From positions 579,051 through 643,050 of the forward strand of contig CAVPIX010000016.1 in assembly GCA_963705115.1 (NCBI GenBank): a stretch of 64,000 bases of DNA. The letters run 5' to 3'. Source of the stretch: an uncultured delta proteobacterium. Lineage in GTDB: Bacteria > Desulfobacterota > Desulfobaccia > Desulfobaccales > 0-14-0-80-60-11. The notes under the pieces were generated by a model. It saw only the letters and a program-made list of their open reading frames with translations. It was not told the origin of the DNA and searched no databases. This document shows positions 1,785 through 49,082 of this stretch, in pieces; within the stretch, counting starts at the first letter, position 1; each line of letters begins with the position of its first letter. The translations under genes and the position numbers were made by a program.

Positions 1785-3677
1785 TCACCTTTCCCGGGCC
1801 ATGTGGGCGTTGGCGAAGTAGCTGGCCAGAAACCGCCGGGCTATGGGCGCGGCCACCTCGCCCCCCTGGCCGCCGTGCTCGACGATGACGGAGACGGCCA
1901 CCTCGGGGTTGTCAGCCGGGGCATAGGCCACGAACCAGGCGTGGTTCTGGAACTTGCGGATACTCCTGCCGGCCTTCTCTTTTTCCAAGGAAACCACCTG
2001 GGAAGTGCCGGTCTTGCCCGCCACCTCCACATCGTAAAGAGCGGCCCGCCGGCCGGTGCCGCTGCGCACCACCCCCAACAAACCCCGGCGCACCGCCGCC
2101 AGGTTGGCGGGACTGGCATCCAGGCGGCCCTGCACTACCGGCTGAAAGCGGTAGAGAATTTCCCCAGCCGGGGTTTCCACTTTATCCACCAACTGGGGCT
2201 TGTAAACCGTGCCGCCGTTGGCCACGGTGGCGGCCATCCAGGCCACCTGCAAGGGCGTGGCCAGGTTGTACCCCTGACCGATGGACAGGTTCAAGGTGTC
2301 GCCCTCGGTCCAGGGGGCCCTGTAACGGGTGCGCTTCCATTCCGGAGTGCCGATCAGCCCCGGCAGTTCCCCCCCGAGCTTGAGCCCCGAAGGAACGCCC
2401 ATCCCGAATTTCTTGCCCCATTGGGCGATGCGCTCGATGCCCAGCCGGCGCCCCACCTCGTAAAAATAGACATCGCAGGACTGCACCAGGCCCTGATACA
2501 AGGCCACGCTGCCGTGCCCCGACTTTCTATGGCAGCCGAACTCATGATTGCCCACGGTGAGATACCCGGAGCAATGAAAAGTGGTGTGGGGAGTGATGAC
2601 CTTTTCCTCCAGGCCGGCCAACGCCATGAGAATCTTGAAGGTGGAGCCGGGGGGATACTGTCCTTTGATGGTGCGGTTCATCAGGGGATGGTTCTTATTG
2701 TCCAGGAGCTTCTGCCATTCCTCGGCTTTAACCCCCCCCTGGAAGGTTTCCTGGGAGAAACTGGGGGAGGAGGCCAGGACCAGAACCTTGCCGTTTTGGG
2801 GGTTGATGGCCGCAATGGCGCCCACCTTGCCCTGGAGGATGTTTTCGGCCTCCCGCTGCAAACGGGTGTCCAGGGTCAACCGGATGTTGGCCCCGGAGAT
2901 TGCGGCGGTTTGGTCCAGGCTGCCCAACTCCCGGCCAAAGGCGTCCACCTCGATGCGGCGGGAGCCCTGCCGGCCCCGGAGAGTGTCCTCCCAGGACGCC
3001 TCGATGCCGGAGCGGCCGATATAATCCCCCATCTTGTAGGAGGGGTAACGGCCGCTCTTGAGCTGGGGATCGGTGATTTCCCCGATGTAGCCCAATATAT
3101 GGCTGGCCACGGAGGGCTGATGATAGACCCTTTTAGCGGCAATGACGATGAACACCCCGGGAAGTTCGGCCTTATAGGTCTCCACCAGGGCCATCTCGTC
3201 CCAGGCAAGGTGGGTTTTGAGACGCACCTGGGTGAGACCGGCCTGGCGAGCCTTGTCAATCTGGGCGGTGATCACACTCCCGTCAATTTTCAGGAGCGAC
3301 CCCAGACGCCGGCCCAAAAGCTCCGGGTCCTGGATGTCTTCCAGGGTGGCCATGAGGTTGAAGCTGTGCTGGTTGTCCACCAGGACCGCGCCGCTCCGGT
3401 CCAGGATCATGCCCCGCCAGGAGGGCAGATCGAGAGAGCGGATGCGGTTGGATTCCGAACGGGTCTGGAGATACTCCCCCTGGACCAACTGGAGATACCA
3501 GAGGCGCAGAAAAAGAAGCCCAAAGAGCAGGAGCACCACCGGGGCCACCCTTATCAGGACCCGCCGGGAGCGCTCCAGCTCCTCCGGGGTCATGCTGTCG
3601 CCCAGGGGTTCTTCCTGGTAAGGGTATTGCAGCGGCTGGGAAGGTTTATCGAGCTTCATGTAACCATCATCAAGCAT
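1785..3677 (-). CDS. mrdA: penicillin-binding protein 2 (elongation-specific transpeptidase)
   Basis: 630-aa ORF; N-terminal TM helix, active-site STFK (PPGSTFKILMALAG), KTGT motif (VAGKTGTSQV); last gene of the mreBCD-mrdA string. Confidence 0.9.
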   Translation of the reverse strand: MLDDGYMKLDKPSQPLQYPYQEEPLGDSMTPEELERSRRVLIRVAPVVLLLFGLLFLRLWYLQLVQGEYLQTRSESNRIRSLDLPSWRGMILDRSGAVLVDNQHSFNLMATLEDIQDPELLGRRLGSLLKIDGSVITAQIDKARQAGLTQVRLKTHLAWDEMALVETYKAELPGVFIVIAAKRVYHQPSVASHILGYIGEITDPQLKSGRYPSYKMGDYIGRSGIEASWEDTLRGRQGSRRIEVDAFGRELGSLDQTAAISGANIRLTLDTRLQREAENILQGKVGAIAAINPQNGKVLVLASSPSFSQETFQGGVKAEEWQKLLDNKNHPLMNRTIKGQYPPGSTFKILMALAGLEEKVITPHTTFHCSGYLTVGNHEFGCHRKSGHGSVALYQGLVQSCDVYFYEVGRRLGIERIAQWGKKFGMGVPSGLKLGGELPGLIGTPEWKRTRYRAPWTEGDTLNLSIGQGYNLATPLQVAWMAATVANGGTVYKPQLVDKVETPAGEILYRFQPVVQGRLDASPANLAAVRRGLLGVVRSGTGRRAALYDVEVAGKTGTSQVVSLEKEKAGRSIRKFQNHAWFVAYAPADNPEVAVSVIVEHGGQGGEVAAPIARRFLASYFANAHMARER

Positions 3678-7228: not shown

Positions 7229-8911
7229 ATGCAAACACGGACCATCCTGGCCGTGGTGCTGAGTTTTCTGGTCTTTTTCCTGTTCACCTATCTTGGTCAG
7301 AATTTCGGGCCCAAGCCGCCGGCGGAAGCTCCCGCGCCCCAGACGGCGGGGTTGGCCACACCCTCACCGTCCCCGGAGCCCAAACCGGTTGCGGCTACCG
7401 CAGCTCCGGCTCAACCGGCCTCCCCGTCCCGACCGGCCCGGGAGGTGGTGGTGGACACCGAACTCTATCGGGCGGTCTTCACAGAGCAGGGGGCCGGTCT
7501 CAAGAGCTTTCAGTTAAAAAATTTCAAGCACAGCCTGCCCATCGAGACCATCTCCAAATTCAGCCTGGGGCCGGTGAGCTTTGAGCTGGAACGCTTTAAG
7601 GACCAGGGACAGGCCGCGGCCAAACTGAAAGAACTGGTCACGGCCGACCCGGCTCAGGCCAGGCCCCTGAGCTTCTCCTGGGAAAGCCGCGACCTGACGG
7701 TGCCGGCCACGCTGTTTTATGAAGCCAGCGCTCCGGCCCTCACCCTGAAGGACGGCGACGCCGGCGCCCTGACCTTCAAGGGCGTTACCCCCGAGGGCTT
7801 GGAGATTACCAGGACCTACCAGTTTCAGGGGCAAAGCTATGTGTTTAACCTGAAAACCACGGTGGCCAACCGCACCTCGCAGAATCTGGAGGGCAAACTC
7901 AACCTGGCCCTTACCGGCACGGCCAGTGGCCAGCCCCAGGACGCCCAGGGCCTGGCAATTTTTGTGGACAAGGCCTTAAAGGAATTTAAGTCAGGGGAAC
8001 TCAAGGAACCCAAGGTTTTTGCCGACAAAGTTCAATGGGTGGCGTTAAACGAATTGTATTTCCTGGCCGCGGCGGTGCCGACGGACGCCCCCCAGGTGCA
8101 GGCCACCCTGGCGGAGACGCCCCCGAATCAACTGGCGGCCACCCTGAACCTGCCTGAGAAAATCAGCGCCGGCCAGGAGGGCCAGGCCGCCAATGCGTTT
8201 TATTTCGGCCCCAAGGACATTAGCGATCTTCGGGCTGCAAACCTGGGGCTGGACAGGGTGGTGGATTTCGGCTGGTTCGACTGGCTGGCCCGGCCCTGCC
8301 TCTACTTTCTCAAGTGGCTCAACAGCTATATCCACAATTATGGCTGGTCCCTGATTATCATCACCATCCTCCTGAGGGTGGTCTTCTTGTATCCCAACCA
8401 CAAGAGCTTTCAGTCCATGAAGACCATGCAGAAGATTCAGCCACGGGTGGCGGAAATCAGGGAGAAGTACAAGGATGACCGGGAGGCCATGAACCGGGAG
8501 CTCATGAACCTGTACCGCACCTTCAAGGTCAATCCCCTGGGGGGCTGCCTCCCCATGGCCCTGCAGTTGCCGGTGTTTCTGGCCTTGTACAATCTGCTCA
8601 GCAGTTCCATCGAGCTGCGGCACGCCTCTTTCATCCCCACCCTGCCCTTCACCAACATCGTCTGGCTGGCCGACCTGTCCGCCAAGGACCCGCTGCTCAT
8701 CACCCCCATCATCATGGGGGCCACCATGTTCATCCAGCAGAAAATGTCTCCTTCGCCGGGCGACCCCGCCCAGGCCAAGATGATGATGTTTCTGCCGCTG
8801 ATCTTTACCTTTCTCTTCCTCAATTTTGCTTCCGGCCTGGTGATTTACTGGCTGGTGAACAACGTTCTGGCCATCGCCCAGCAGTATTTCACCAACAAGT
8901 ATCTCAAATAG
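7229..8911 (+). CDS. yidC: membrane protein insertase YidC
   Basis: 560 aa; N-terminal TM, large periplasmic domain, C-terminal 5-TM core with conserved ...MQKIQPRVAEIREKYKDDREAMNRELMNLYRTFKVNPLGGCLP... Confidence 0.95.
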   Translation: MQTRTILAVVLSFLVFFLFTYLGQNFGPKPPAEAPAPQTAGLATPSPSPEPKPVAATAAPAQPASPSRPAREVVVDTELYRAVFTEQGAGLKSFQLKNFKHSLPIETISKFSLGPVSFELERFKDQGQAAAKLKELVTADPAQARPLSFSWESRDLTVPATLFYEASAPALTLKDGDAGALTFKGVTPEGLEITRTYQFQGQSYVFNLKTTVANRTSQNLEGKLNLALTGTASGQPQDAQGLAIFVDKALKEFKSGELKEPKVFADKVQWVALNELYFLAAAVPTDAPQVQATLAETPPNQLAATLNLPEKISAGQEGQAANAFYFGPKDISDLRAANLGLDRVVDFGWFDWLARPCLYFLKWLNSYIHNYGWSLIIITILLRVVFLYPNHKSFQSMKTMQKIQPRVAEIREKYKDDREAMNRELMNLYRTFKVNPLGGCLPMALQLPVFLALYNLLSSSIELRHASFIPTLPFTNIVWLADLSAKDPLLITPIIMGATMFIQQKMSPSPGDPAQAKMMMFLPLIFTFLFLNFASGLVIYWLVNNVLAIAQQYFTNKYLK

Positions 8912-8931: not shown

Positions 8932-9600
8932 ATGGATTTCGTGGAATTTGAAGGCAAAACCACAGAGGAGGCCATTGCCCAGGCCTGTGCCCATTTCCAA
9001 CTTCCCGCGGAGAGTCTGGACATCGAAATTATCTCCGTGGGTTCCCCGGGAATCTTCGGGATCGGCGGACGCAAGGCTCGAGTCCGGGTGAACCTGAAGG
9101 CCGAAGGCGACGATGATCTTTTGCCCCAGGCCCAGGAACTCCTGGAGCATATCCTGGAGCTGATGGGAGAAAAGGGCAAAGTCAAAGGCCGCTTTGACGA
9201 GGAAGAACGGCTCAGTTTGAGCGTCGACGCCGAGGACGCCGGGCTCCTCATCGGCAAACAGGGCCAGACCCTGGAAGCCCTGCAGTATCTCCTCACCAAA
9301 ATGATCGCCAAGAAGGCCCGCCGCAAGGTGCGGGTGTTCATCGATATCGAGTCCTACCGGGCCCGGCACCAGGAGGCCCTCACCCAGTTGGCCCTCAAAT
9401 CCGGGGAGAAAGCCAAGAGGAGCGGCAAGCCCATTACGCTGAACCCCATGAACCCCCATGACCGCCGCATCATCCACCTGGCCCTCCAGGGGGACAAGGA
9501 AGTCAAGACCATGAGCCGGGGTGAAGGCCTCTACAAAAAAGTGGTGGTTTACCCGGCCCGCAAGAAAGATATCCAGGAGAACAGCTCCAGCTCCCTATGA
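8932..9600 (+). CDS. jag: RNA-binding protein Jag/KhpB (Jag-N, KH and R3H domains)
   Basis: 222 aa; MDFVEFEGKTTEEAIAQA (Jag_N), KH-like GLLIGKQGQTLEALQYL, R3H-like LNPMNPHDRRIIHLAL; conserved position after yidC. Confidence 0.85.
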   Translation: MDFVEFEGKTTEEAIAQACAHFQLPAESLDIEIISVGSPGIFGIGGRKARVRVNLKAEGDDDLLPQAQELLEHILELMGEKGKVKGRFDEEERLSLSVDAEDAGLLIGKQGQTLEALQYLLTKMIAKKARRKVRVFIDIESYRARHQEALTQLALKSGEKAKRSGKPITLNPMNPHDRRIIHLALQGDKEVKTMSRGEGLYKKVVVYPARKKDIQENSSSSL

Positions 9601-10976
9601 CCTGGCCCGAGGCGGGGGACACCATTGCGGCCGTCGCCACGCCCCCGGGAGAGGCGGGCATCGGCATCGTGCGGCTGAGCGGCCCCCAGGCCGAGAGCAT
9701 CGCCCGCCGCCTCTTCCGCCCCCGCCGGCCCCGAGACTCCTGGCAATCCCACCGCCTGTACCTGGGGGACTTTCTTGACTCCCAGGGGCATGTCCTTGAC
9801 GAAGTCCTCCTTACCCTCATGCGGGCTCCCCAGAGCTACACCCAAGAAGATGTGGTGGAAATTCACTGTCATTCGGGGTATGCGGTTTTGCGGGCTGTAC
9901 TGGGAGAGGTTCTGGCCCAGGGGGCACGCCTGGCCCGGCCCGGGGAGTTCACCCTGCGGGCCTTTCTGTCCGGTCGCCTGGACCTCTCCCAGGCCGAGGG
10001 CGTTCTCGAAGTCATCCAGGCCCGGACCCAGGCCTCCCTGCGGGTGGCCGCAGCGCATCTGGGAGGCGGTTTGGCGCGGCCCCTGGGGGTGTTGCGGGCC
10101 GCGCTTTTGGGGGTACTGGCTCAAATCGAGGCCGCCCTGGACTTTCCGGAGGAGGCGGCTGAACTTTCGCCAGGGGCCTTGCGGGAAGAGTTGGCCGGTC
10201 CCCTAAAGGACTTGCAGCGCCTTCTGAAGACCTACCGGCAGGGGCGCCTGCTCAGGGAAGGGGTGAAGGTGGTCCTGGCCGGCCGCCCCAACGTGGGCAA
10301 ATCCAGCTTACTCAACCGGCTCCTGGACGCGGACCGGGCCATTGTCACCGATATCCCCGGCACCACGAGAGACGTAATCGAAGAAACCCTGACCCTCGGG
10401 GGCGTGGCCCTGTGTGTGAGCGACACCGCCGGGCTCAGGGAGGCCCGGGACCTGGTGGAAGAAATGGGCGTGGCCCGCTCCCGGGATCATATGTCCCAGG
10501 CCGACCTGATCCTCTATGTCGTGGACGGCAGCGAACCTCTCTCGGAGGAAGATGCCCGGGTTTTAGGGGAATTGGCTGAACGCCCCGTTTTGGTGGTGCT
10601 TAATAAGAGAGATTTGCCTGCAAAACTCAATGTCGATGACCTGCGTCGGTATTCCTCTCAGCCGGCGGTGGAGATTTCGGCCCTCACCGGCCAGGGACTG
10701 AAGAATCTCGAAGAGGCGCTGGTGGAACTGGTCCTGGGGGGCGGGGTGCAGACCGAGGGGGAGATCATCACCCAGTCCCGCCATGCCGGCCTGCTAAACC
10801 GGGCCGAGGAAGCCCTGGGGCGGGGTCAGGGGCTTTTGGAACAGGCCGGGCCCCCCTGGGAACTGGCCGCCCTGGAAGTCAAAGAGGCCCTCCTGGCCCT
10901 GGGGGAAATCACCGGAGAGGAAGTGGGGGACGCGGTCCTGGACCACATTTTTTCCCAGTTTTGTATTGGGAAATGA
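9597..10976 (+). CDS. mnmE: tRNA modification GTPase MnmE
   Basis: 459 aa; DTIAAVATPPGEAGIGIVRLSG N-terminus, G-domain GRPNVGKSSLLN / DTAG, C-terminal FCIGK. ATG overlaps the jag stop. Confidence 0.95.
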   Translation: MTWPEAGDTIAAVATPPGEAGIGIVRLSGPQAESIARRLFRPRRPRDSWQSHRLYLGDFLDSQGHVLDEVLLTLMRAPQSYTQEDVVEIHCHSGYAVLRAVLGEVLAQGARLARPGEFTLRAFLSGRLDLSQAEGVLEVIQARTQASLRVAAAHLGGGLARPLGVLRAALLGVLAQIEAALDFPEEAAELSPGALREELAGPLKDLQRLLKTYRQGRLLREGVKVVLAGRPNVGKSSLLNRLLDADRAIVTDIPGTTRDVIEETLTLGGVALCVSDTAGLREARDLVEEMGVARSRDHMSQADLILYVVDGSEPLSEEDARVLGELAERPVLVVLNKRDLPAKLNVDDLRRYSSQPAVEISALTGQGLKNLEEALVELVLGGGVQTEGEIITQSRHAGLLNRAEEALGRGQGLLEQAGPPWELAALEVKEALLALGEITGEEVGDAVLDHIFSQFCIGK

Positions 10977-15029: not shown

Positions 15030-15719
15030 ATGCCCAGGCAATTGGATCGAGAATTAAATGCTCTCAAGCAAAAGCTCCTCATCATGGCCACCAAGGCGGA
15101 AGAGGCAGTGCAGAAGAGCTTGTTTTCCGTCATCCACCGCAACTCCGATTTGGCCCGGGATGTCATTACCGATGACATTCAGTTGAATCAAATGGAGTTG
15201 GAAATCGAAGAACAGGCCTTCAAACTCCTGGCCCTACGGCAACCGGTGGCCACCGATTTGCGTCTGATCATTGCCACCATGCGCATCGCCACCACCCTGG
15301 AACGGATCGGCGACCAGGGAGTGAATATCGCCGAGCGGGCCCTGGAGCTCAACAACGCCCCCCCCGTGGAACTGCCCATCGACATGAAGATGCTGGGTGA
15401 CATGGCCTTTGGCATGGTGCGCACCAGCATCGACGCCTTTGTGCAGCAGGACCCCAAACTGGCCATCCAGGTGTGCCAGCGGGACACCGAGGTGGACCTT
15501 CTGGACGACGAGTACACCCAGAAGATCCTGGACACCATGATCAGCGAGGCCCGCTGGGTGATGCGCCTGCATCACTTCATTATTGTCATGCGGAATCTGG
15601 AGCGCATCGCCGATTTGGCCACCAACATCGCCGAGGACATTGTCTTCATTGTGGAAGGCCGGGTCATCAAGCACAGGTGCGAGGACTGGTTTCTGACCGG
15701 GAATCCAACCTCATCTTAG
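15030..15719 (+). CDS. phoU: phosphate signalling complex protein PhoU
   Basis: Two PhoU repeats (ERIGDQGVNIAE and ERIADLATNIAEDI). ATG at 15030 preferred over the TTG at 15015. Confidence 0.9.
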   Translation: MPRQLDRELNALKQKLLIMATKAEEAVQKSLFSVIHRNSDLARDVITDDIQLNQMELEIEEQAFKLLALRQPVATDLRLIIATMRIATTLERIGDQGVNIAERALELNNAPPVELPIDMKMLGDMAFGMVRTSIDAFVQQDPKLAIQVCQRDTEVDLLDDEYTQKILDTMISEARWVMRLHHFIIVMRNLERIADLATNIAEDIVFIVEGRVIKHRCEDWFLTGNPTSS

Positions 15720-17046
15720 CCTGGGCCATCTTTTCCTCTAAAAATTTTACTTCCTGCTCCAAACGGGGCTGCAACTGGCGATCACGCTCCAGGGTCTGGA
15801 GGGCATGGACCACGGAGCCGTGGCTCCGCTGGAAAAGGCGTCCCAGTTCCACCACGGTCTTCATGGTATAGAGGCGGGAAAAGTAAAGGCCGACCTGCCG
15901 GGCCCGCACCAGCTTTTTCTGCCGGCCGCGCCCTAATAACTCCCTGACGTTGATCTGGTAATAATCGCAGACAATTTTCTGGATCTGGCCGACGCTCAGA
16001 CGGGGGGCCACGGCCTTTAAATCGTGGAGGACTTCCTGGGCCAGGGGCAGGCTCACGGGCTGCCCCAGGAGGGTGGAGCGGGCCACCAGGCAATCCAGGG
16101 CGCTTTCCAGACGGCGCACGTCGCCGCTGATATGCTCTGCCACGTGCTCCATCACCGGGGTGGGCACCTTGACGCCCCGATCCTCCGCTTTTCTGGTCAA
16201 AATCTCCACCCGGGTGGCAAAGTCCGGGGGGGCGATGGGCGTGATGAGGCCGCCGGTGAACCGGGAGCGCAGTTCCTGGGACAGCTGGCTGATTTCACCG
16301 GGAAGGTAACAACTGGTGAGGACCAGCTTTTTGCGGCGGTCCAGCAGGGTGTCCAGGGTATAGCACAGTTCAGCCTGGATCTTCTCCTTGCCCGCGAGAA
16401 ACTGCACCTCTTCCATGAGGAGCACATCGCACTCACCCCGGTAGCGCTCCTTGAACCGGGACATCTGGTCCCCTTTCAGGGCCTTGACCATGTCATTGGT
16501 AAAATCCTCGGCAGTTACATAACGAACGGACGGTTGGGGCGCGGCGGCCAGGAGGCAGTTGCCCACGGCCTGGGCGAGATGGCTCTTCCCCAAGCCGGGG
16601 TTGGCCGTGAGAAACAGGATGCCGCTGAAAAAGGTGTCTTTGCGGGCCAGGGCCTCGGCGGCCCGGAAAGCCAGGCGGTTGGAGCCCCCCACCACAAAAT
16701 TATTGAAGGTGAATTCCCGATTCAGGCTGCGCCCCTGGGGGCGGGCCTGGCCGGGAAGAGGAAGGGTCAGCTGCCCGGCCGCGGGCATCGGCGCCAGGGG
16801 GCGGGGGCGGGACGGGGCCGAGGTCAGCTTTACCGGCAGGGGATGGCCTGCCTGGGTCAACACCTGGCTGATATGGGGGAGATAATGGGACTTGACCCAA
16901 CGAAGCGCAAAAGGATTGGGACAGATGAGCTGGAGTTCACCTCCGGACCCCTGGTCCACCTCCAAGGGCTCAATCCATAAAGAAAATCCTGACGGGGAGA
17001 TGTGGTCCTTCAGATCAGCTTTGACGACTTCCCAAATTTCCTGCAT
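15667..17046 (-). CDS. dnaA: chromosomal replication initiator protein DnaA
   Basis: AAA+ Walker A (NPGLGKSHLAQAVGN), Walker B (LLMEEVQFL), C-terminal DNA-binding helix region (RARQVGLYFSRLYT...LGRLFQRSHGSVVHA). ATG at 17046 preceded by AGGGGG. The 3' end overlaps phoU by 53 nt. Confidence 0.95.
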   Translation of the reverse strand: MQEIWEVVKADLKDHISPSGFSLWIEPLEVDQGSGGELQLICPNPFALRWVKSHYLPHISQVLTQAGHPLPVKLTSAPSRPRPLAPMPAAGQLTLPLPGQARPQGRSLNREFTFNNFVVGGSNRLAFRAAEALARKDTFFSGILFLTANPGLGKSHLAQAVGNCLLAAAPQPSVRYVTAEDFTNDMVKALKGDQMSRFKERYRGECDVLLMEEVQFLAGKEKIQAELCYTLDTLLDRRKKLVLTSCYLPGEISQLSQELRSRFTGGLITPIAPPDFATRVEILTRKAEDRGVKVPTPVMEHVAEHISGDVRRLESALDCLVARSTLLGQPVSLPLAQEVLHDLKAVAPRLSVGQIQKIVCDYYQINVRELLGRGRQKKLVRARQVGLYFSRLYTMKTVVELGRLFQRSHGSVVHALQTLERDRQLQPRLEQEVKFLEEKMAQAKMRLDSRSETSPRTCA

Positions 17047-17464
17047 ATTTCCCCCTATGTTGAGCCGCATATTACTTATCATCTCCCTTGATCGTCAAAG
17101 TCGGTATCTCGAAATAGAGGTTAGCGCCCACAGGAATACACCTTGAGGTAAGGGCCGTTAAACCTCAAGCTTGGCCTCAGCGAACGGAGTAAGGAAATTC
17201 CTTATGGAAGAAAACTCTGATTTAGCCGGTTCTTGGGTCAATTAACCCCGCAAACCTGCCTTCCTAGTAATCTCGCGTTTGCTGCTTTTTTTACGCTTTT
17301 TTATAGGGGAACGCTCAAAGAGGTTACAAAAATTGGTAAGGCGTTAAATTTCCATAAGGATGACTTAACATCTTTTTAATTATAGTTATATCAATACGTT
17401 AATTAAATTAATAGCAACCCTGGGAGCTTCTCTGACAGAGGTCTGGGGAGGCTCTATGGTTCCC

Positions 17465-36940: not shown

Positions 36941-37153
36941 TTATCTCTTTTGCTCCGCAAAAGGCATAAATTAGCGGGGGAGGGGGCTAAGGGCCGGCGG
37001 GCCCTTACCCCCTCCCCCACACCCCCTCCCCCAATCCCTTAAGGGGTTTATATAGTGTATGGGGCCAGGCCTAAGGCCCGGCCCCATACAACCTCTATAG
37101 CGGGTTGGGAGGGGGGTGTGGGGGGAGGCCAGGGACCTCAGGTCCCTGGCCCT
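36941..37153. repeat. MITE-like element copy in inverted orientation, with a different central hairpin
   Basis: TTATCTCTTTTGCTCCGCAAAAGGCATAA..., GGGGGAGGGGGCTAAGGGCCGGCGGGCCCTTACCCCCTCCCCC..., central TATAGTGTATGGGGCCAGGCCTAAGGCCCGGCCCCATACAACCTCTATA, GGGTTGGGAGGGGGGTGTGGGGGG, GGCCAGGGACCTCAGGTCCCTGGCC. Confidence 0.7.
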
Positions 37154-37184
37154 TCACCCACAACTCCATCCGGTTGATAATCCC

Positions 37185-38210
37185 ATGACTCGCCCTCCAT
37201 CCGGTGAAATTGAACTTATCCAGCGCCTGGCCGCCATCTTCGGGGCTGCGCCTCCGGGAGTGGCCCTGGGGATTGCCGACGACTGCGCCGCCCTGGACCT
37301 GGGGGGGCCGGATTATCTGCTGTGGACCGTAGACACCCTGATTGAGGGAGTCCACTTCGACCTGGCCTCCATCTCCCTGCACCAGTTGGGCAGAAAATCC
37401 CTGGCCGTGAATTTAAGCGACATTGCGGCCATGGGCGGGGAGGCCCTGTATGCGCTCCTGTCACTGGGGTGGCCGCCGGACCGGGATTTGGCTCAAGCCC
37501 TGGAATTCGGCCAGGGGTTGGCGGCCTGCGCCCGGGATTACGGGACCGCGGTCATCGGCGGGGATACGGTGTCCTCCCCGTTGGGGCTGGCCATTACCCT
37601 GACGGTCCTGGGCCAGGTGCCCAAAAACCAGATGCTGCGGCGATCCGGGGCCCGGCTCGGCGATCTGGTCTATGTCACCGGCCCTTTGGGGGAATCAGCC
37701 GCAGGGCTGGAAATTTTGGGGCGCCAGTTAGAGATAGACCCGGCCCTGTCCCAGCCCCTAATCAGGGCGCACCTCGATCCTAAGCCCCAGTTAGCAGCAG
37801 GCCGCGTCTTGGCCCAGCAGGGTTTGGCCACCGCCTGCATCGACCTTTCGGACGGGGTGGCTTCCGACCTCAGGCACATCTGCCGGCTGAGCCGGGTGGG
37901 CGCATGCTTGTTCGCAGAGAACCTGCCTATTGCCGAAGGGGTCAGGGCCGTGGCCCGGATGGTGGGCCAGGACCCGGAGGAGTTGGCCCTGCAGGGAGGG
38001 GAGGATTATCAGCTCCTAATCACATGTGCTCCGGAGCAGGCCCCCAATCTTGCCGCAGTTTTTGCGCAAGCCGGGCTCGAAGCTCCCATCCGGATCGGCG
38101 AAATCGTCCCCGGAGACGAACTGATTTTAATTATTGGAAAAAGAGAAAAAATCATCTCGGGGTCGGGATACGAACATTTCCGACTTGACCCCAGGAAAAG
38201 TTCGGATTAA
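37185..38210 (+). CDS. thiL: thiamine-monophosphate kinase
   Basis: 341 aa from ATG 37185; GEIELIQRL..., DDCAAL, AIR-synthase-like N and C domains (NLSDIAAMGG). Upstream 23 codons of the track ORF are repeat sequence. Confidence 0.9.
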   Translation: MTRPPSGEIELIQRLAAIFGAAPPGVALGIADDCAALDLGGPDYLLWTVDTLIEGVHFDLASISLHQLGRKSLAVNLSDIAAMGGEALYALLSLGWPPDRDLAQALEFGQGLAACARDYGTAVIGGDTVSSPLGLAITLTVLGQVPKNQMLRRSGARLGDLVYVTGPLGESAAGLEILGRQLEIDPALSQPLIRAHLDPKPQLAAGRVLAQQGLATACIDLSDGVASDLRHICRLSRVGACLFAENLPIAEGVRAVARMVGQDPEELALQGGEDYQLLITCAPEQAPNLAAVFAQAGLEAPIRIGEIVPGDELILIIGKREKIISGSGYEHFRLDPRKSSD

Positions 38211-41436: not shown

Positions 41437-41734
41437 GCCCCCCCATATTGCCAAATAATACCAGAATGTAAGGGGAATGCGCTGAAGATCCATCATCTCT
41501 GTGATAACTAATCATCGTGGTGGCCTTCATGTGAAAAAAAGCATTTTCCATTTGACATGGCTAGTGGTGGTTATATAATCTTTGGGGTAGGAAATTTTCT
41601 TGTTTTCTGGTAGAAATTTCTTATAAAGGCAATTATGTAAAGATGTAGGAAAATCGGCCACCTGGCGGCCGGACTGATAGGAATGACACCATTTTTTGGG
41701 AATTAAGCCCAAAACCGAATCAGGTGGAGGAACT

Positions 41735-43099
41735 ATGGCAGAAGAAGTAAAAGAAATCAAAGTCAGCCGAAAGGACCGCAAAATAGGCGGCATCGCCCCT
41801 GAACTGGCGGATCGCTGTTATACCTGCGGAACCTGCTCCGGCGGCTGCCCGGCCACAGGTCTGCTGCCCATTGAAGGCGGCGCCGGCACCTGGGACCCCC
41901 GCAAGGCCATCCGGGCTATTGTCTTCGGCATGGAGCAGGAAGTCATCGACTCCAAATGGCCCTGGGTATGCACCGGCTGCGGCCGTTGTCAGTACCAGTG
42001 CCCCATGGGCATTCAGCTCATGCGCACCTTCCGGGCCTGCCGCACCCACCGGAACCGGGACAAGGTCCCCGGCCCCATCCACAAGGGCACCATGATGAAC
42101 CTGGAGCGGGGCAACAACCTGGGCATCCCCAAGGACGACTTCCTTTTCCTGTTGGCCGAGTTGGGCAAGGAGATGGAAGAGGAATGCTGCCCCGGCTTCT
42201 ATGTGCCGGTGGACAAGGAAGGGGCCAACGTCATCATCACCATCAACTCCAAGGAACCCTTCGGCGAACCGGACGACATGAAGTTCTGGTGGAAAATTTT
42301 CTACGCCGCCAAAGAGGACTGGACGGTATCCTCGGTAAACTGGGAAGGGGTCAACTGGGGGCTTTTTTCCGGCGACGACCCGGCCTGGAAGGAGCAAACG
42401 CACCGGGTCCTCGACAACGCCCGACGATTAAAATGCAAAACCCTTTTGCTCCCGGAATGAGGGCACGCATACTTTGCAACCCGGGCCGGGTTCAAAAATT
42501 GGTTTCCTGAAGCGTTTGAAGAATTCAAGGTGGTCAGTGTCCAGGAACTCCTGAAAGAGTACATTGAGGAGGGCCGGATCAAGCTCGATCCCTCCGTCAA
42601 CCATCACACCATTACGGTGCACGACCCCTGCAACTATGTGCGCAAGTCCCAGATAACCTTTGGCGACCACATGGGGGAACTCAACCGCTGGATCACCCAG
42701 CAGTGCGTCGATCCCTCCCTGTACCGGGAAATGTGCGACGATCCCCTGAACAACCACTGCTGCGGCGCCGGCGGCGGCGCCTGGGCCATGCCCTACGACA
42801 ACGAGCGCCTGGCTTACGGCAAAGTCAAGGTCGACCAGATTCGGGATACCGGGGCGCAGATCGTCATGGCCCCCTGCCACAACTGCCGGGACCAGATCAT
42901 GAAGGGTCTGGCCGGCGAGTTTAAAAAGGGCACGGAAGGCTTTGACATGGGCAACTACGAAGAAACCTTATATCTCTGGGAGCTGGTGGCCAACACCCTG
43001 GTGGTGGAGCCCTGGAGCGAGGAGGAGATCGAAGCCGCCCATGCGCTGCGGGACGCCCAGTTCGAGCGGGACGGCATCGAGCTCGAGGAAGAAGAATAA
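41735..43099 (+). CDS. HdrD/DsrK-like Fe-S CCG-domain oxidoreductase, read through in-frame TGA (42458-42460) as selenocysteine
   Basis: Track ORFs 41696..42460 and 42530..43099 share one frame; the 23 codons between them are open. Motifs: CYTCGTCSGGCP and CTGCGRCQYQCP (2x[4Fe-4S]), LLLPE-TGA-GHAYF, then CCG domain PCNYV...HCCGAGGG...PCHNCRDQ. GGTGGAGG RBS before ATG 41735. Confidence 0.75.
42473..42496 (+). promoter_or_regulatory. candidate bacterial SECIS hairpin for TGA 42458
   Basis: UUUG(C)AACCCG-GGC-CGGGUU-CAAA: about 10 bp with one bulged C, starting 12 nt after the UGA; apical loop 27-29 nt from the U of UGA. Confidence 0.5.
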
Positions 43100-43130
43100 C
43101 TTACCGGATTGTTTGAATAATCACGCCAAA

Positions 43131-43163
43131 GCCTGGTGGACTTGAGTTCACCAGGCTTTTTTT
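43131..43163 (+). terminator. rho-independent terminator candidate after the HdrD-like gene
   Basis: GCCTGGTG-GACTTGAGT-TCACCAGGC followed by TTTTTTT. Confidence 0.6.
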
Positions 43164-43636: not shown

Positions 43637-44756
43637 TCACCCAGATACATCCTCGCCGGGGTTCAGCAAATAGGCCTCCACGAAACCCTGGAGGTCGCCG
43701 TTCAGCACCCGGTCCACGTCCCCTTCTTCGTGTTTGGTGCGGTGGTCTTTCACCATGCGGTAGGGCTGGAGCACATAGGAGCGTATCTGGCTGCCCCAGG
43801 CGATGTCCTTCTGGGTCTCCTGGAGTTCCTGGCGCTTTTCATCCCGCTTGCGCCGTTCCAGATCATAGAGCCGGGCCCGCAGGACCTTCATGGCCAGTTC
43901 CCGGTTGCGGTGCTGGGAACGCTCGCTCTGGCTGATGACCACGATGTTGGTGGGCAGGTGGGTGAGGCGCACCGCGGAGCTGGTCTTATTGACGTGCTGG
44001 CCCCCGGGGCCGCTGGCCCGGAAGGTGTCCACCCGCAGGTCCTTGTCCTGGATTTCAATGCTTATGCGGTCGTCCACTTCCGGAAGCACCTGCACCGCGG
44101 CAAAGGAGGTGTGGCGACGGCCGCTGGCGTCAAAGGGAGAAATGCGCACCAGGCGATGAATGCCGTGTTCGCTCTTAAAATTGCCGTACGCGTATGGACC
44201 GCTGGCCGAAAAAGTGGCGGACTTTACCCCGGCCTCGTCCCCTTCCTGGAGGTCGATGGTTTCCGTCTTGAAGCCCTTGATTTCCGCGTAGCGCAGATAC
44301 ATGCGCAGGAGCATTTCGCACCAGTCCTGGGCCTCGGTGCCGCCGGCGCCGGCGTGAATGGTGATGATGGCGTTTCTCTGGTCGTCTTCGCTCCCCATGA
44401 GGAGCTGCAGCTGCCATTCCTTGAAGTCCCGGTCGAGGGTGGCCAGCCCCGCGGCCACCTCCTGCATGGACTGGAGGTCTTCCTCCTCCCGGGCCAACTC
44501 CAGGAGCACCTCCAGGTCCTCCACCTGGCGAGCCTGGCGGTCATAGCCCTCTAAGGCGTTGATGAGGCCGCTTCTCTCCCGCTGGACTTCAGCCGCAGCC
44601 TGGGGGTCTTCCCAAAACGCGGCCTCAGCCATGATCTTATCTATTTCAGCCAGGCGCGCCTGTTTTTTGTCCAGCTCAAAGAAAACTCCGCAGGGCCGCA
44701 AGGCGGTCCTGGTATTCAGCCAACTTGGACTTGTATTCTCCGTAGAATTCCAGCAT
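43637..44756 (-). CDS. prfB: peptide chain release factor 2, with programmed +1 frameshift
   Basis: Frame 0: ATG (44754-44756) MLEFYGEYKSKLAEYQDRLAALRSFL then TGA. The +1 frame continues ELDKKQARLAEIDK...SPFDASGRRHTSFAAV...GPGGQHVNKTSSAVR.... AAGGAG RBS upstream. Confidence 0.95.
44676..44681 (-). promoter_or_regulatory. RF2 autoregulatory +1 frameshift site CUU UGA G
   Basis: mRNA ...GCGGAGUUUUCUUUGAGCUG...: slippery CUU + UGA, with an internal SD-like GGAG 4 nt upstream, as in the classical prfB site. Confidence 0.9.
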
Positions 44757-45105
44757 ATTTTCTCCTTGCCTTTACCGTGAAAGTCCCTGGTAGGGGCGAC
44801 GCATGCGTCCCCCTGTAACAAATTTTTGTTTTCGGGGGGGGCGCCAATGCAGGGTGGGCACCGCCCACCAATAATGGCGGGCAGGGAGGCCCGCCCTACC
44901 GACCTTTCCATTATGTGATTCAACGGACCTTGGCCTGGCTCGTGAGCAAGACCGAAGTCTTAAATTCCCTTTGAGATATTGGAAACGAAATGCTGACGGG
45001 CAACAAGATGAGCTGGCGTCCTGGCGACCGTCGTCACCCGGGCGTCACAGGCCGGACCAGTTATGCAGAATGAGAATTGCTAAGGCGAACATATTGTTAA
45101 TGTTA

Positions 45106-48821: not shown

Positions 48822-49082
48822 ATGGAGAAGGACTTTTTAACCACCCTCACCTTTGCGGTAGCCGGCATGGAGGAACAGGGCGGCTTTCTCTGAGTGGGCT
48901 GTCCCGACGCCGTGTGCGGCGAGATCAAGAATATTCCGGGGGTCACCCGGGTGGAGTTCGACCAGGAAACCCGCCTGTTTCAGGTGGATTTTCATAAACG
49001 CTTTGTGACCCCGGCAGACATTTTCGTGGCGGTCTGGGAGGCGGGGAAGAAAATGGGAAAGGAGTACCTCCCCAGACTGTAA
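48822..49082 (+). CDS. small HMA-fold-like protein read through in-frame TGA (48891-48893) as selenocysteine, giving a U-V-G-C motif
   Basis: ATG 48822 MEKDFLTTLTFAVAGMEEQGGFL-TGA-VGCPDAVCGEIKNIPGVTRVEFDQETRLFQVDFHKRFVTPADIFVAVWEAGKKMGKEYLPRL*. The track ORF starts at the GTG immediately after the TGA. The beta1-like TLTFAVAGM lies upstream of the TGA in the same frame. Confidence 0.55.
48908..48921 (+). promoter_or_regulatory. candidate SECIS hairpin for TGA 48891
   Basis: CGCCG-UGUG-CGGCG, 5 G:C-rich bp; loop contains GU and lies 23-26 nt from the U of UGA. Short, so only suggestive. Confidence 0.35.

Follow-up and report, generated by a model that had tools for sequence, protein, structure and literature searches.

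Does the UGA codon at 42458-42460 of this DNA end a gene, or does it encode selenocysteine (Sec) in the middle of one? The window, as the whole 64,000-nucleotide stretch of contig CAVPIX010000016.1 from an uncultured delta proteobacterium is called here, holds two open reading frames (ORFs) in the same frame, listed as 41696..42460 and 42530..43099. A sequence-only reading of the window had proposed that automatic calling split one selenoprotein gene into these two ORFs. We analyzed the locus and conclude, with high confidence, that 41735..43099 is one monocistronic gene for a soluble, 454-residue Fe-S oxidoreductase of the HdrD/DsrK/HmcF/TmcB superfamily, in which UGA codon 242 is decoded as Sec. 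This conclusion is carried by direct observations: the single frame, the Cys/Sec pairing, the conserved TGA and hairpin, the domains of the product, and purifying selection acting before and after the TGA.

Reading Frame and Homologues of the Interrupted Gene

Direct reading and translation identified TGA 42458-42460 as the sole stop from the ATG at 41735 through the TAA at 43097-43099. The halves 41735..42457 and 42461..43099 share one frame with that TGA alone between them, and the 23 codons after it are open, just as the sequence-only reading had stated. Read-through yields 454 amino acids, with the UGA codon (U242) in the context LLLPE-U-GHAYFATR. The motifs claimed for this product were all present in the translation: two CxxCxxCxxxCP motifs (C28-C38 and C79-C89), LLLPE-U-GHAYF, and a CCG set consisting of PC299NYV, HC342C343GAGGG, and PC381HNC384. 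The suspected splitting was also encountered in public data, where two metagenome annotations divide the gene into a 241-aa and a 189-aa product. The identical N-terminal product occurs on two independent metagenome contigs (ENA ERZ27247859 k141_932796 and JGI 3300027897 Ga0209254_10106537).

The protein was searched against a collection of 5.8 billion proteins, which gave 2750 matches, and the best 120 of the 2750 were aligned with MAFFT. All 120 are single chains of 437-513 amino acids that span both halves and cross the junction, instead of the two separate polypeptides that the proposal had been weighed against. The context LLLPE[C]GHAY[YF]ATR is nearly invariant in the alignment, and the U column holds Cys in 99 of the 120, Ser in 13, and other residues in 8, in agreement with the P-E-C-G-H-like context that the sequence-only reading had named. 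The eight other residues are Gly, Leu, Ile, Ala, Val, or Thr, with the rest of the motif kept, and Ser-type examples (P0011, P0024, and P0037) read LLLPESGHAY in an otherwise intact motif. The homologues with Ser or another residue may be catalytically silent or functionally diverged paralogues.

At the DNA level, the pattern P-E-TGA-G-H-A-Y-[FY]-A was searched with one genome per species. It was found on at least 120 contigs, with about 0.5 chance matches estimated. PE-TGA-GHAY[FY]A is present in at least 120 further genomes, every listed contig holds a family member, and the U column is occupied by both Cys and Sec codons, as the check suggested for it had anticipated. In all matches listed, 173-212 codons are open after the TGA, and 228-441 are open before it at the loci without a cut end. 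The matches listed come almost all from sulfate-reducing or syntrophic Thermodesulfobacteriota and include Desulfobulbaceae, Desulfocapsaceae, Syntrophobacteraceae, Desulfobacterales, Desulfatiglandales, Desulfobaccales, and Desulfarculales. Cultured strains with the TGA are Desulfogranum marinum, Desulfopila aestuarii, Desulfofustis glycolicus, and Desulfacinum hydrothermale. The nearest relatives, 78-87% identical to the window protein, all have the TGA; the nearest Cys form is 66% identical.

The ratio of nonsynonymous to synonymous substitution rates (dN/dS), estimated against eight orthologues, was 0.12-0.22 before the TGA and 0.09-0.33 after it, at dS 0.6-1.0. Because the ratio is equally low on both sides, both halves must be translated in this frame. 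The same data bear on the suspicion that the locus is a pseudogene or a sequencing or assembly error in which a TGY Cys codon became nonsense. In one sequence, a single base change from TGC or TGT to TGA would look no different; however, the same TGA stands in at least 120 independent genomes and in the two independent metagenome assemblies with the identical N-terminal product, and purifying selection acts alike on both halves (about 0.1-0.3). Conservation has effectively refuted this explanation already, and we give it almost no credence.

Hairpin Downstream of the UGA Codon

The sequence-only reading had described a hairpin of about 10 bp at 42473-42496, beginning 12 nt after the UGA. The hairpin is present, but its exact position is 42474-42495, so that it begins 13 nt past the UGA and its loop begins 23 nt past it. 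It consists of a 6-bp upper stem, a GGC loop, a bulged C42477, and a 3-bp lower stem (sequence in Table 1). The published model of the bacterial selenocysteine insertion sequence (bSECIS) has an apical loop of 3-9 nt, an upper stem of 4-16 bp, a G in the first two loop positions, and a distance of 16-37 nt between UGA and loop (PMC13188914). With its 6-bp stem, its GGC loop, and its 23 nt from the UGA, the window hairpin lies within these limits. When a strict filter (stem of at least 4 bp, other criteria per PMC13188914) was applied to the genes of the family, 108 of 121 Sec genes passed, their loops lying at a constant 22-23 nt from the UGA, compared with 4 of 18 Cys controls.

A hairpin occurs at the same place in all 121 Sec genes, with an energy of -9.64 +/- 1.34 kcal/mol. 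When these peptides were recoded synonymously, the energy was -5.22 +/- 2.36 kcal/mol, and the 18 Cys-type genes encoding ATRxG[L/F] gave -5.59 +/- 2.03 kcal/mol (Mann-Whitney p = 1.6e-10). For the window peptide, 1.8% of 1000 synonymous recodings matched the stability of the real hairpin. The hairpins of Sec genes are about 4 kcal/mol more stable than recodings or Cys homologues, and this stability tracks the TGA, not the peptide, which is the outcome that the proposed bSECIS-type check had sought downstream of the UGA.

Two stem registers are used among the orthologues, GCAACCCGG-UCC-GGGUUG (the window type) and GCGACCAGG-CU-UGGUCUGC. Compensatory changes, partly synonymous, pair Arg CGG/AGG with Gly GGG/GGU and Thr ACC/ACU with GGU/AGU; they include C:G to U:A at columns 24/31 and A:U to C:G at columns 25/30. 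The 121-gene set is a clean case of a coding-region hairpin kept via two different stem registers. A Rfam scan of 42300-42700 at E <= 10 returned a chance match to a small nucleolar RNA only, and no SECIS family.

The nearest Cys-type homologue (L138 on metagenome contig Ga0187771_10007985, 66% identity, LYPECGHAYYATRFGF) retains the complete GCAACCCGG-UUC-GGGUUC hairpin and is one of the four Cys controls that passed the strict filter. Its hairpin appears to be a fossil SECIS, which would imply a recent conversion from Sec to Cys.

The hairpin also matters for the possibility that translation really ends at the TGA and that two subunits are made from the locus, one ferredoxin-like (241 aa) and one of CCG type (189 aa). 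Gene callers do give two ORFs, and methanogen HdrC and HdrB, which resemble the two halves, are separate polypeptides. However, the earliest restart would be GTG 42530, 23 codons past the TGA and with no visible Shine-Dalgarno sequence upstream, and the intervening codons hold GHAY[FY]ATRxG[LF]..W[FY]P, which ranks among the best-conserved motifs of the family, in frame in all 121 genes. Considering also that the best 120 of 2750 homologues are all fused and that the bSECIS-type hairpin goes with TGA and not with TGY, we regard two subunits as very unlikely.

UGA Usage and Evidence Against the Proposed Reading

A third explanation is that UGA is translated here as something other than Sec, either through a reassigned code (UGA = Trp or Gly) or through unspecific near-cognate read-through. 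Reassignments of UGA do occur in some bacteria. In the window, however, UGA is an ordinary stop that terminates mrdA at 1785 and mnmE at 10974, and a full gene for release factor 2 (RF2), prfB, lies at 43637-44923 (-), 0.5 kb downstream of the selenoprotein gene (502 bits vs a cut-off of 370). Moreover, the aligned residue in the homologues is Cys, the hallmark of Sec/Cys pairs, and a reassignment would need no dedicated hairpin. We find this explanation highly improbable. A window-wide scan for in-frame TGAs listed 78 candidates, mostly shadow frames of GC-rich DNA.

Several observations weigh against the proposed reading of the gene. The 76-nt fold taken alone is unremarkable compared with dinucleotide shuffles (z = -0.17), and because it is no better than shuffles, the significance of the hairpin must rest on the comparison with other genes. 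Covariation counted in a single register, with no double changes at i+j=56 and three pairs with such changes at i+j=55, is ambiguous owing to the shift between two registers among the orthologues, and we relied on the energy and recoding tests and on the Cys controls instead. Ser or another residue at the U column in 21 of the 120 homologues suggests that this residue is dispensable for folding in some paralogues. The window copy is without the HdrA/Mvh, AsrAB-like, or acyl-CoA dehydrogenase neighbours of its relatives and without a hydrogenase maturation protease. Lastly, no selA, selB, selD, or tRNA-Sec gene (selC) was seen within the 64-kb window, so that the case for Sec decoding in this organism is an indirect one.

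Two sets of candidates for the Sec machinery were rejected. The ORF 37116-38210, considered for SelD on account of its AIRS domains, is ThiL (295.7 bits vs a cut-off of 184) and is the only AIRS-family ORF of the window. The large ORFs considered by size for SelA and SelB are MrdA, EF-G, a histidine kinase, MnmE, DnaA, and YidC.

Domain Content and Superfamily Placement

The read-through product joins an HdrC-like ferredoxin domain to a CCG domain (Table 1). Pfam detected one CCG domain only, and the invariant Cys columns hold a single five-Cys motif. The top NCBIfam similarities were to HmcF, TmcB, and DsrK and covered residues 66-396, with scores far below the equivalog cut-offs of DsrK, HmcF, and TmcB (NF045796, NF045711, and NF045724; 138.5 vs 400, 182.2 vs 750, and 138.6 vs 735, respectively). 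By these profile scores, the window protein is a superfamily relative of DsrK, HmcF, and TmcB and no orthologue. The cut-offs of GlpC proper were not reached either (26.9 vs 278 for NF008369 and 19.6 vs 279.9 for TIGR03379); 'GlpC' in the name of the selenoprotein family is a historical COG label only. In BLASTP against a DsrK-like protein (30% identity over 400 residues, E = 1e-39), U242 was paired with the Cys of ISPECGHAY, and all CCG cysteines likewise aligned.

A PDB search with the single sequence gave HdrC-type matches only, in the N-terminal half. The family profile matched HdrC in the N-terminal half (E = 1e-19) and, weakly, HdrB and EtfD in the C-terminal half; no DsrK chain was matched in this profile search. 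We also used the AlphaFold model of P0001, a Cys homologue 66% identical to the window protein (predicted local distance difference test score 89.3, predicted template modelling score 0.90). Its nearest solved structure was EtfD of Mycobacterium smegmatis (PDB 9OJN; E = 7.6e-13, query-normalised template modelling score 0.66), followed by LutA and HdrB (Foldseek E = 6e-5 to 6e-4 for HdrB).

Comparison with Known Systems

'Fe-S oxidoreductase (GlpC)' has been listed as a bacterial selenoprotein family since Kryukov and Gladyshev 2004 (see also Zhang et al. 2006, PMC1794560). Its members in Syntrophobacter fumaroxidans, Desulfotalea psychrophila, and Desulfovibrio vulgaris typically lie in a glpC-hdrA-frhD-frhG-frhA operon (PMC1794560), D. 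autotrophicum has Sec-HdrD4 (PMC2702500), and a 2026 review tabulates the Sec motif of the family as UGH (PMC13188914). The earlier statement that a GlpC/HdrD-like Fe-S oxidoreductase is a reported delta-proteobacterial selenoprotein family was therefore well founded. The window protein shares with this family a single Sec in U-G-H, homologues with Cys in its place, a bSECIS immediately following the UGA, and a distribution in sulfate-reducing and syntrophic deltaproteobacteria. Relatives in Desulfotalea-, Desulfopila-, and Syntrophobacteraceae-type genomes adjoin hdrA/mvh, as published, whereas the window copy stands alone, outside the operon. Unlike the Desulfobulbaceae type of the family, it is without an N-terminal HTH_17 domain. 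It also has an acidic C-terminal tail of about 35 residues.

The membrane complexes DsrMKJOP, Hmc, and Tmc of sulfate reducers have DsrK, HmcF, and TmcB, respectively, as their catalytic subunits in the cytoplasm. [quoted passage not shown] The term selenocysteine is absent from the portion of that paper's text that was available. Like the window protein, these subunits have two ferredoxin-type clusters, one CCG motif, and an ECGH-position residue about 55 residues before the first CCG Cys, and U242 aligns there. The window protein differs from them in having Sec for Cys, in scoring far under their equivalog cut-offs, and in having no adjacent gene for a membrane partner.

Methanogen HdrC and HdrB (PDB 5ODC, 7BKB, and 8RVU) and HdrD share the CCG-type motif for a non-cubane cluster with the window protein, the N-terminal half of which matches HdrC by sequence and the C-terminal half of which, judged from the model, matches HdrB by fold. 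However, in HdrB and HdrD the CCG motif and the non-cubane cluster are each present twice, whereas the window protein has one complete motif and a lone Sec replacing the second, and it fuses the HdrC and HdrB parts in one chain. In M. smegmatis EtfD, the match is to the fused HdrC-like and HdrB-like soluble module of the P0001 model. Nevertheless, EtfD is membrane-anchored, has about 1000 residues, links beta-oxidation to the respiratory chain, is 16% identical, and has no Sec.

The selenoprotein family has been known since 2004, and the present result is a sound annotation fix, not a discovery. Two points reach a little further than the catalogue: the position of Sec at the proposed catalytic Cys of the [G/T]ECGH motif in DsrK, HmcF, and TmcB, and a stand-alone subtype outside the hdrA-mvh operon. 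Public pipelines cut this gene in two and probably do the same to its relatives in at least 120 other genomes, which hides a full-length redox enzyme and leaves the selenoproteins of sulfate-reducing and syntrophic bacteria undercounted.

Proposed Decoding and Catalysis

SelB-dependent insertion of Sec, the types of cluster, the part of U242 in catalysis, and the identity of substrate and electron donor are inferred here. The hairpin at 42474-42495 would recruit SelB with Sec-tRNA(Sec) to a ribosome paused at the UGA, and translation would continue into the CCG domain. In the folded protein, the two ferredoxin-type [4Fe-4S] clusters of the HdrC-like half would pass single electrons to the one non-cubane [4Fe-4S] cluster of the CCG domain. 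The selenol of U242 sits at the conserved Cys position of the [G/T/P]ECGH motif, a Cys that is the remnant of the lost second CCG cluster. Most likely, U242 would attack a disulfide or trisulfide substrate at its S-S bond, and the resulting Se-S intermediate would be resolved by the non-cubane cluster in two one-electron steps. By analogy with DsrK and its relatives, U242 is the probable catalytic residue.

The Sec position coincides with the Cys lately proposed as catalytic in DsrK, the terminal reductase subunit of sulfate respiration. Sec at this DsrK-type site lends independent support to a nucleophilic redox role, and soluble relatives of DsrK are suited to testing the mechanism of the ECGH Cys.

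A more specific reading is that the clade of the window copy comprises soluble reductases of disulfides or trisulfides that are fed by ferredoxin and need no membrane or Hdr/Mvh partner. It is suggested because the copy has a Desulfobaccales/Syntrophobacterales-type origin, a putative promoter and a terminator-like site of its own, no HTH domain, and no hdrA-mvh neighbours; we consider it tentative and rather unlikely. A possible role for such an enzyme would be a cytoplasmic bypass that reduces the DsrC trisulfide or another protein persulfide or disulfide. If this reading is true, the natural Sec/Cys/Ser series at this single position would be direct evidence from evolution that the 'orphan' ECGH Cys of DsrK, HmcF, and TmcB is a nucleophile and not a cluster ligand, as well as a ready experimental handle on its role.

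Transcription Unit and Gene Neighbourhood

The features of the locus are collected in Table 1. A perfect match to the sigma-70 consensus, as found in the promoter-like site, is rare. The scan of the locus gave no terminator-like site between the half-ORFs.

Table 1. Features of the Sec-encoding gene and its flanks in the window.
Feature	Position	Strand	Basis
Promoter-like site, TTGACA, 16-nt spacer, TATAAT (12/12 sigma-70 consensus), 155 nt 5' of the start codon	41552..41579	+	Consensus scan only
Ribosome-binding site GGAGG, 4 nt 5' of ATG	41726..41730	+	Read from the sequence
Coding sequence, 454 codons + TAA; predicted soluble HdrD/DsrK-like Fe-S selenoprotein, 'Fe-S oxidoreductase (GlpC)-like'	41735..43099	+	Frame, domains, homologues, dN/dS
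HdrC-like ferredoxin domain, residues 25-93, two CxxCxxCxxxCP, predicted two [4Fe-4S]	41807..42013	+	Pfam Fer4 / 4Fe-4S dicluster families, PDB HdrC matches, invariant Cys columns
UGA codon 242, most probably read as selenocysteine	42458..42460	+	Cys/Sec pairing, TGA in at least 120 genomes, alignment with PECGH of a DsrK-like protein
bSECIS-type hairpin UUG-(C bulge)-AACCCG, loop GGC, CGGGUU-CAA	42474..42495	+	Folding, orthologue comparison, recoding, Cys controls
CCG domain, residues 294-388, C299/C342-C343/C381/C384, predicted one non-cubane [4Fe-4S]	42614..42898	+	Pfam PF02754, invariant Cys columns, HdrB and EtfD fold matches
Intrinsic terminator-like site, 14-bp stem then T7, 29 nt past the stop codon	43128..43166 (43128..43159 for stem and T7 tail)	+	Terminator scan

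The window gene stands alone, apparently monocistronic, between an aldehyde-dehydrogenase-like gene and prfB, and its neighbourhood also includes endonuclease V, flavin reductase, and cob genes. No cytochrome b or membrane complex partner (DsrM, HmcE, or TmcC) is adjacent. The order flavin reductase, endonuclease V, divergent aldehyde-dehydrogenase-like gene, and target is common to locus L039 (Desulfobaccales), L076, and L117, and is partly kept in L085.

For the relatives, we surveyed the neighbours of 120 Sec loci among the matches listed, at up to 8 kb each, and counted them by BLAST against references. An HdrA-like gene was found at 43 loci, directly downstream of the Sec gene at 31 of them, and a hydrogenase maturation protease was found upstream at 30. 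MvhG was near the Sec gene at 12 loci, MvhA at 9, AsrAB-like genes at 9-12, and acyl-CoA dehydrogenase at 13.

Many Sec and Cys orthologues carry a fused N-terminal HTH_17/MerR-like helix-turn-helix (HTH) DNA-binding domain (35 bits vs a cut-off of 27). This type is represented by L013:4471-5397 (-) and about 35 other Desulfobulbaceae-type loci, mostly with 309 open codons before the TGA. The HTH-type Sec loci lie just upstream of hdrA-mvhG-mvhA and downstream of the hydrogenase maturation protease. Judged from its domains, the HTH-fused selenoprotein may be a redox-sensing regulator. At L012:5901-7251 (+) and similar loci, an ORF for an MvhA-type [NiFe] hydrogenase large subunit lies 3' of the Sec gene and ends in ...RAYDP at its stop. 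This end is the expected Sec position of [NiFeSe] hydrogenases and fits the published four-selenoprotein operon.

Other Observations in the Window

A second candidate, ORF 48822-49082 (+), has an in-frame TGA at 48891-48893 and reads MEKDF...GMEEQGGFL-U-VGCPDAVCGEIKNIPGV... when translated through it. Its layout resembles a small beta-alpha-beta metal-binding domain; the read-through product had no Pfam match. A hairpin, CGCCG-UGUG-CGGCG, starts 17 nt past this UGA, with an unremarkable fold (z = -0.05).

With prfB, a UGA-reading release factor is encoded right beside a UGA-recoding gene. Its ORF comprises 428 amino acids, and the prfB model (353 positions) matches residues 78-419 only; the N-terminal region probably reflects the usual programmed +1 frameshift or an over-extended start.

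The window also carries dnaA at 15667-17082 (-), yidC at 7229-8911 (+), mnmE at 9597-10976 (+), and mrdA at 1785-3677 (-), and because of these genes it was assigned to the chromosomal replication-origin region of a Thermodesulfobacteriota-like genome. Upstream of thiL, at 36960-37150 (+), lies a G/C-rich stretch with repeated GGGGAGGGGG/CCCCCTCCCCC-type runs and the inverted segments GGGCCGGCGGGCCC and GGGGCCAGGCCTAAGGCCCGGCCCC.

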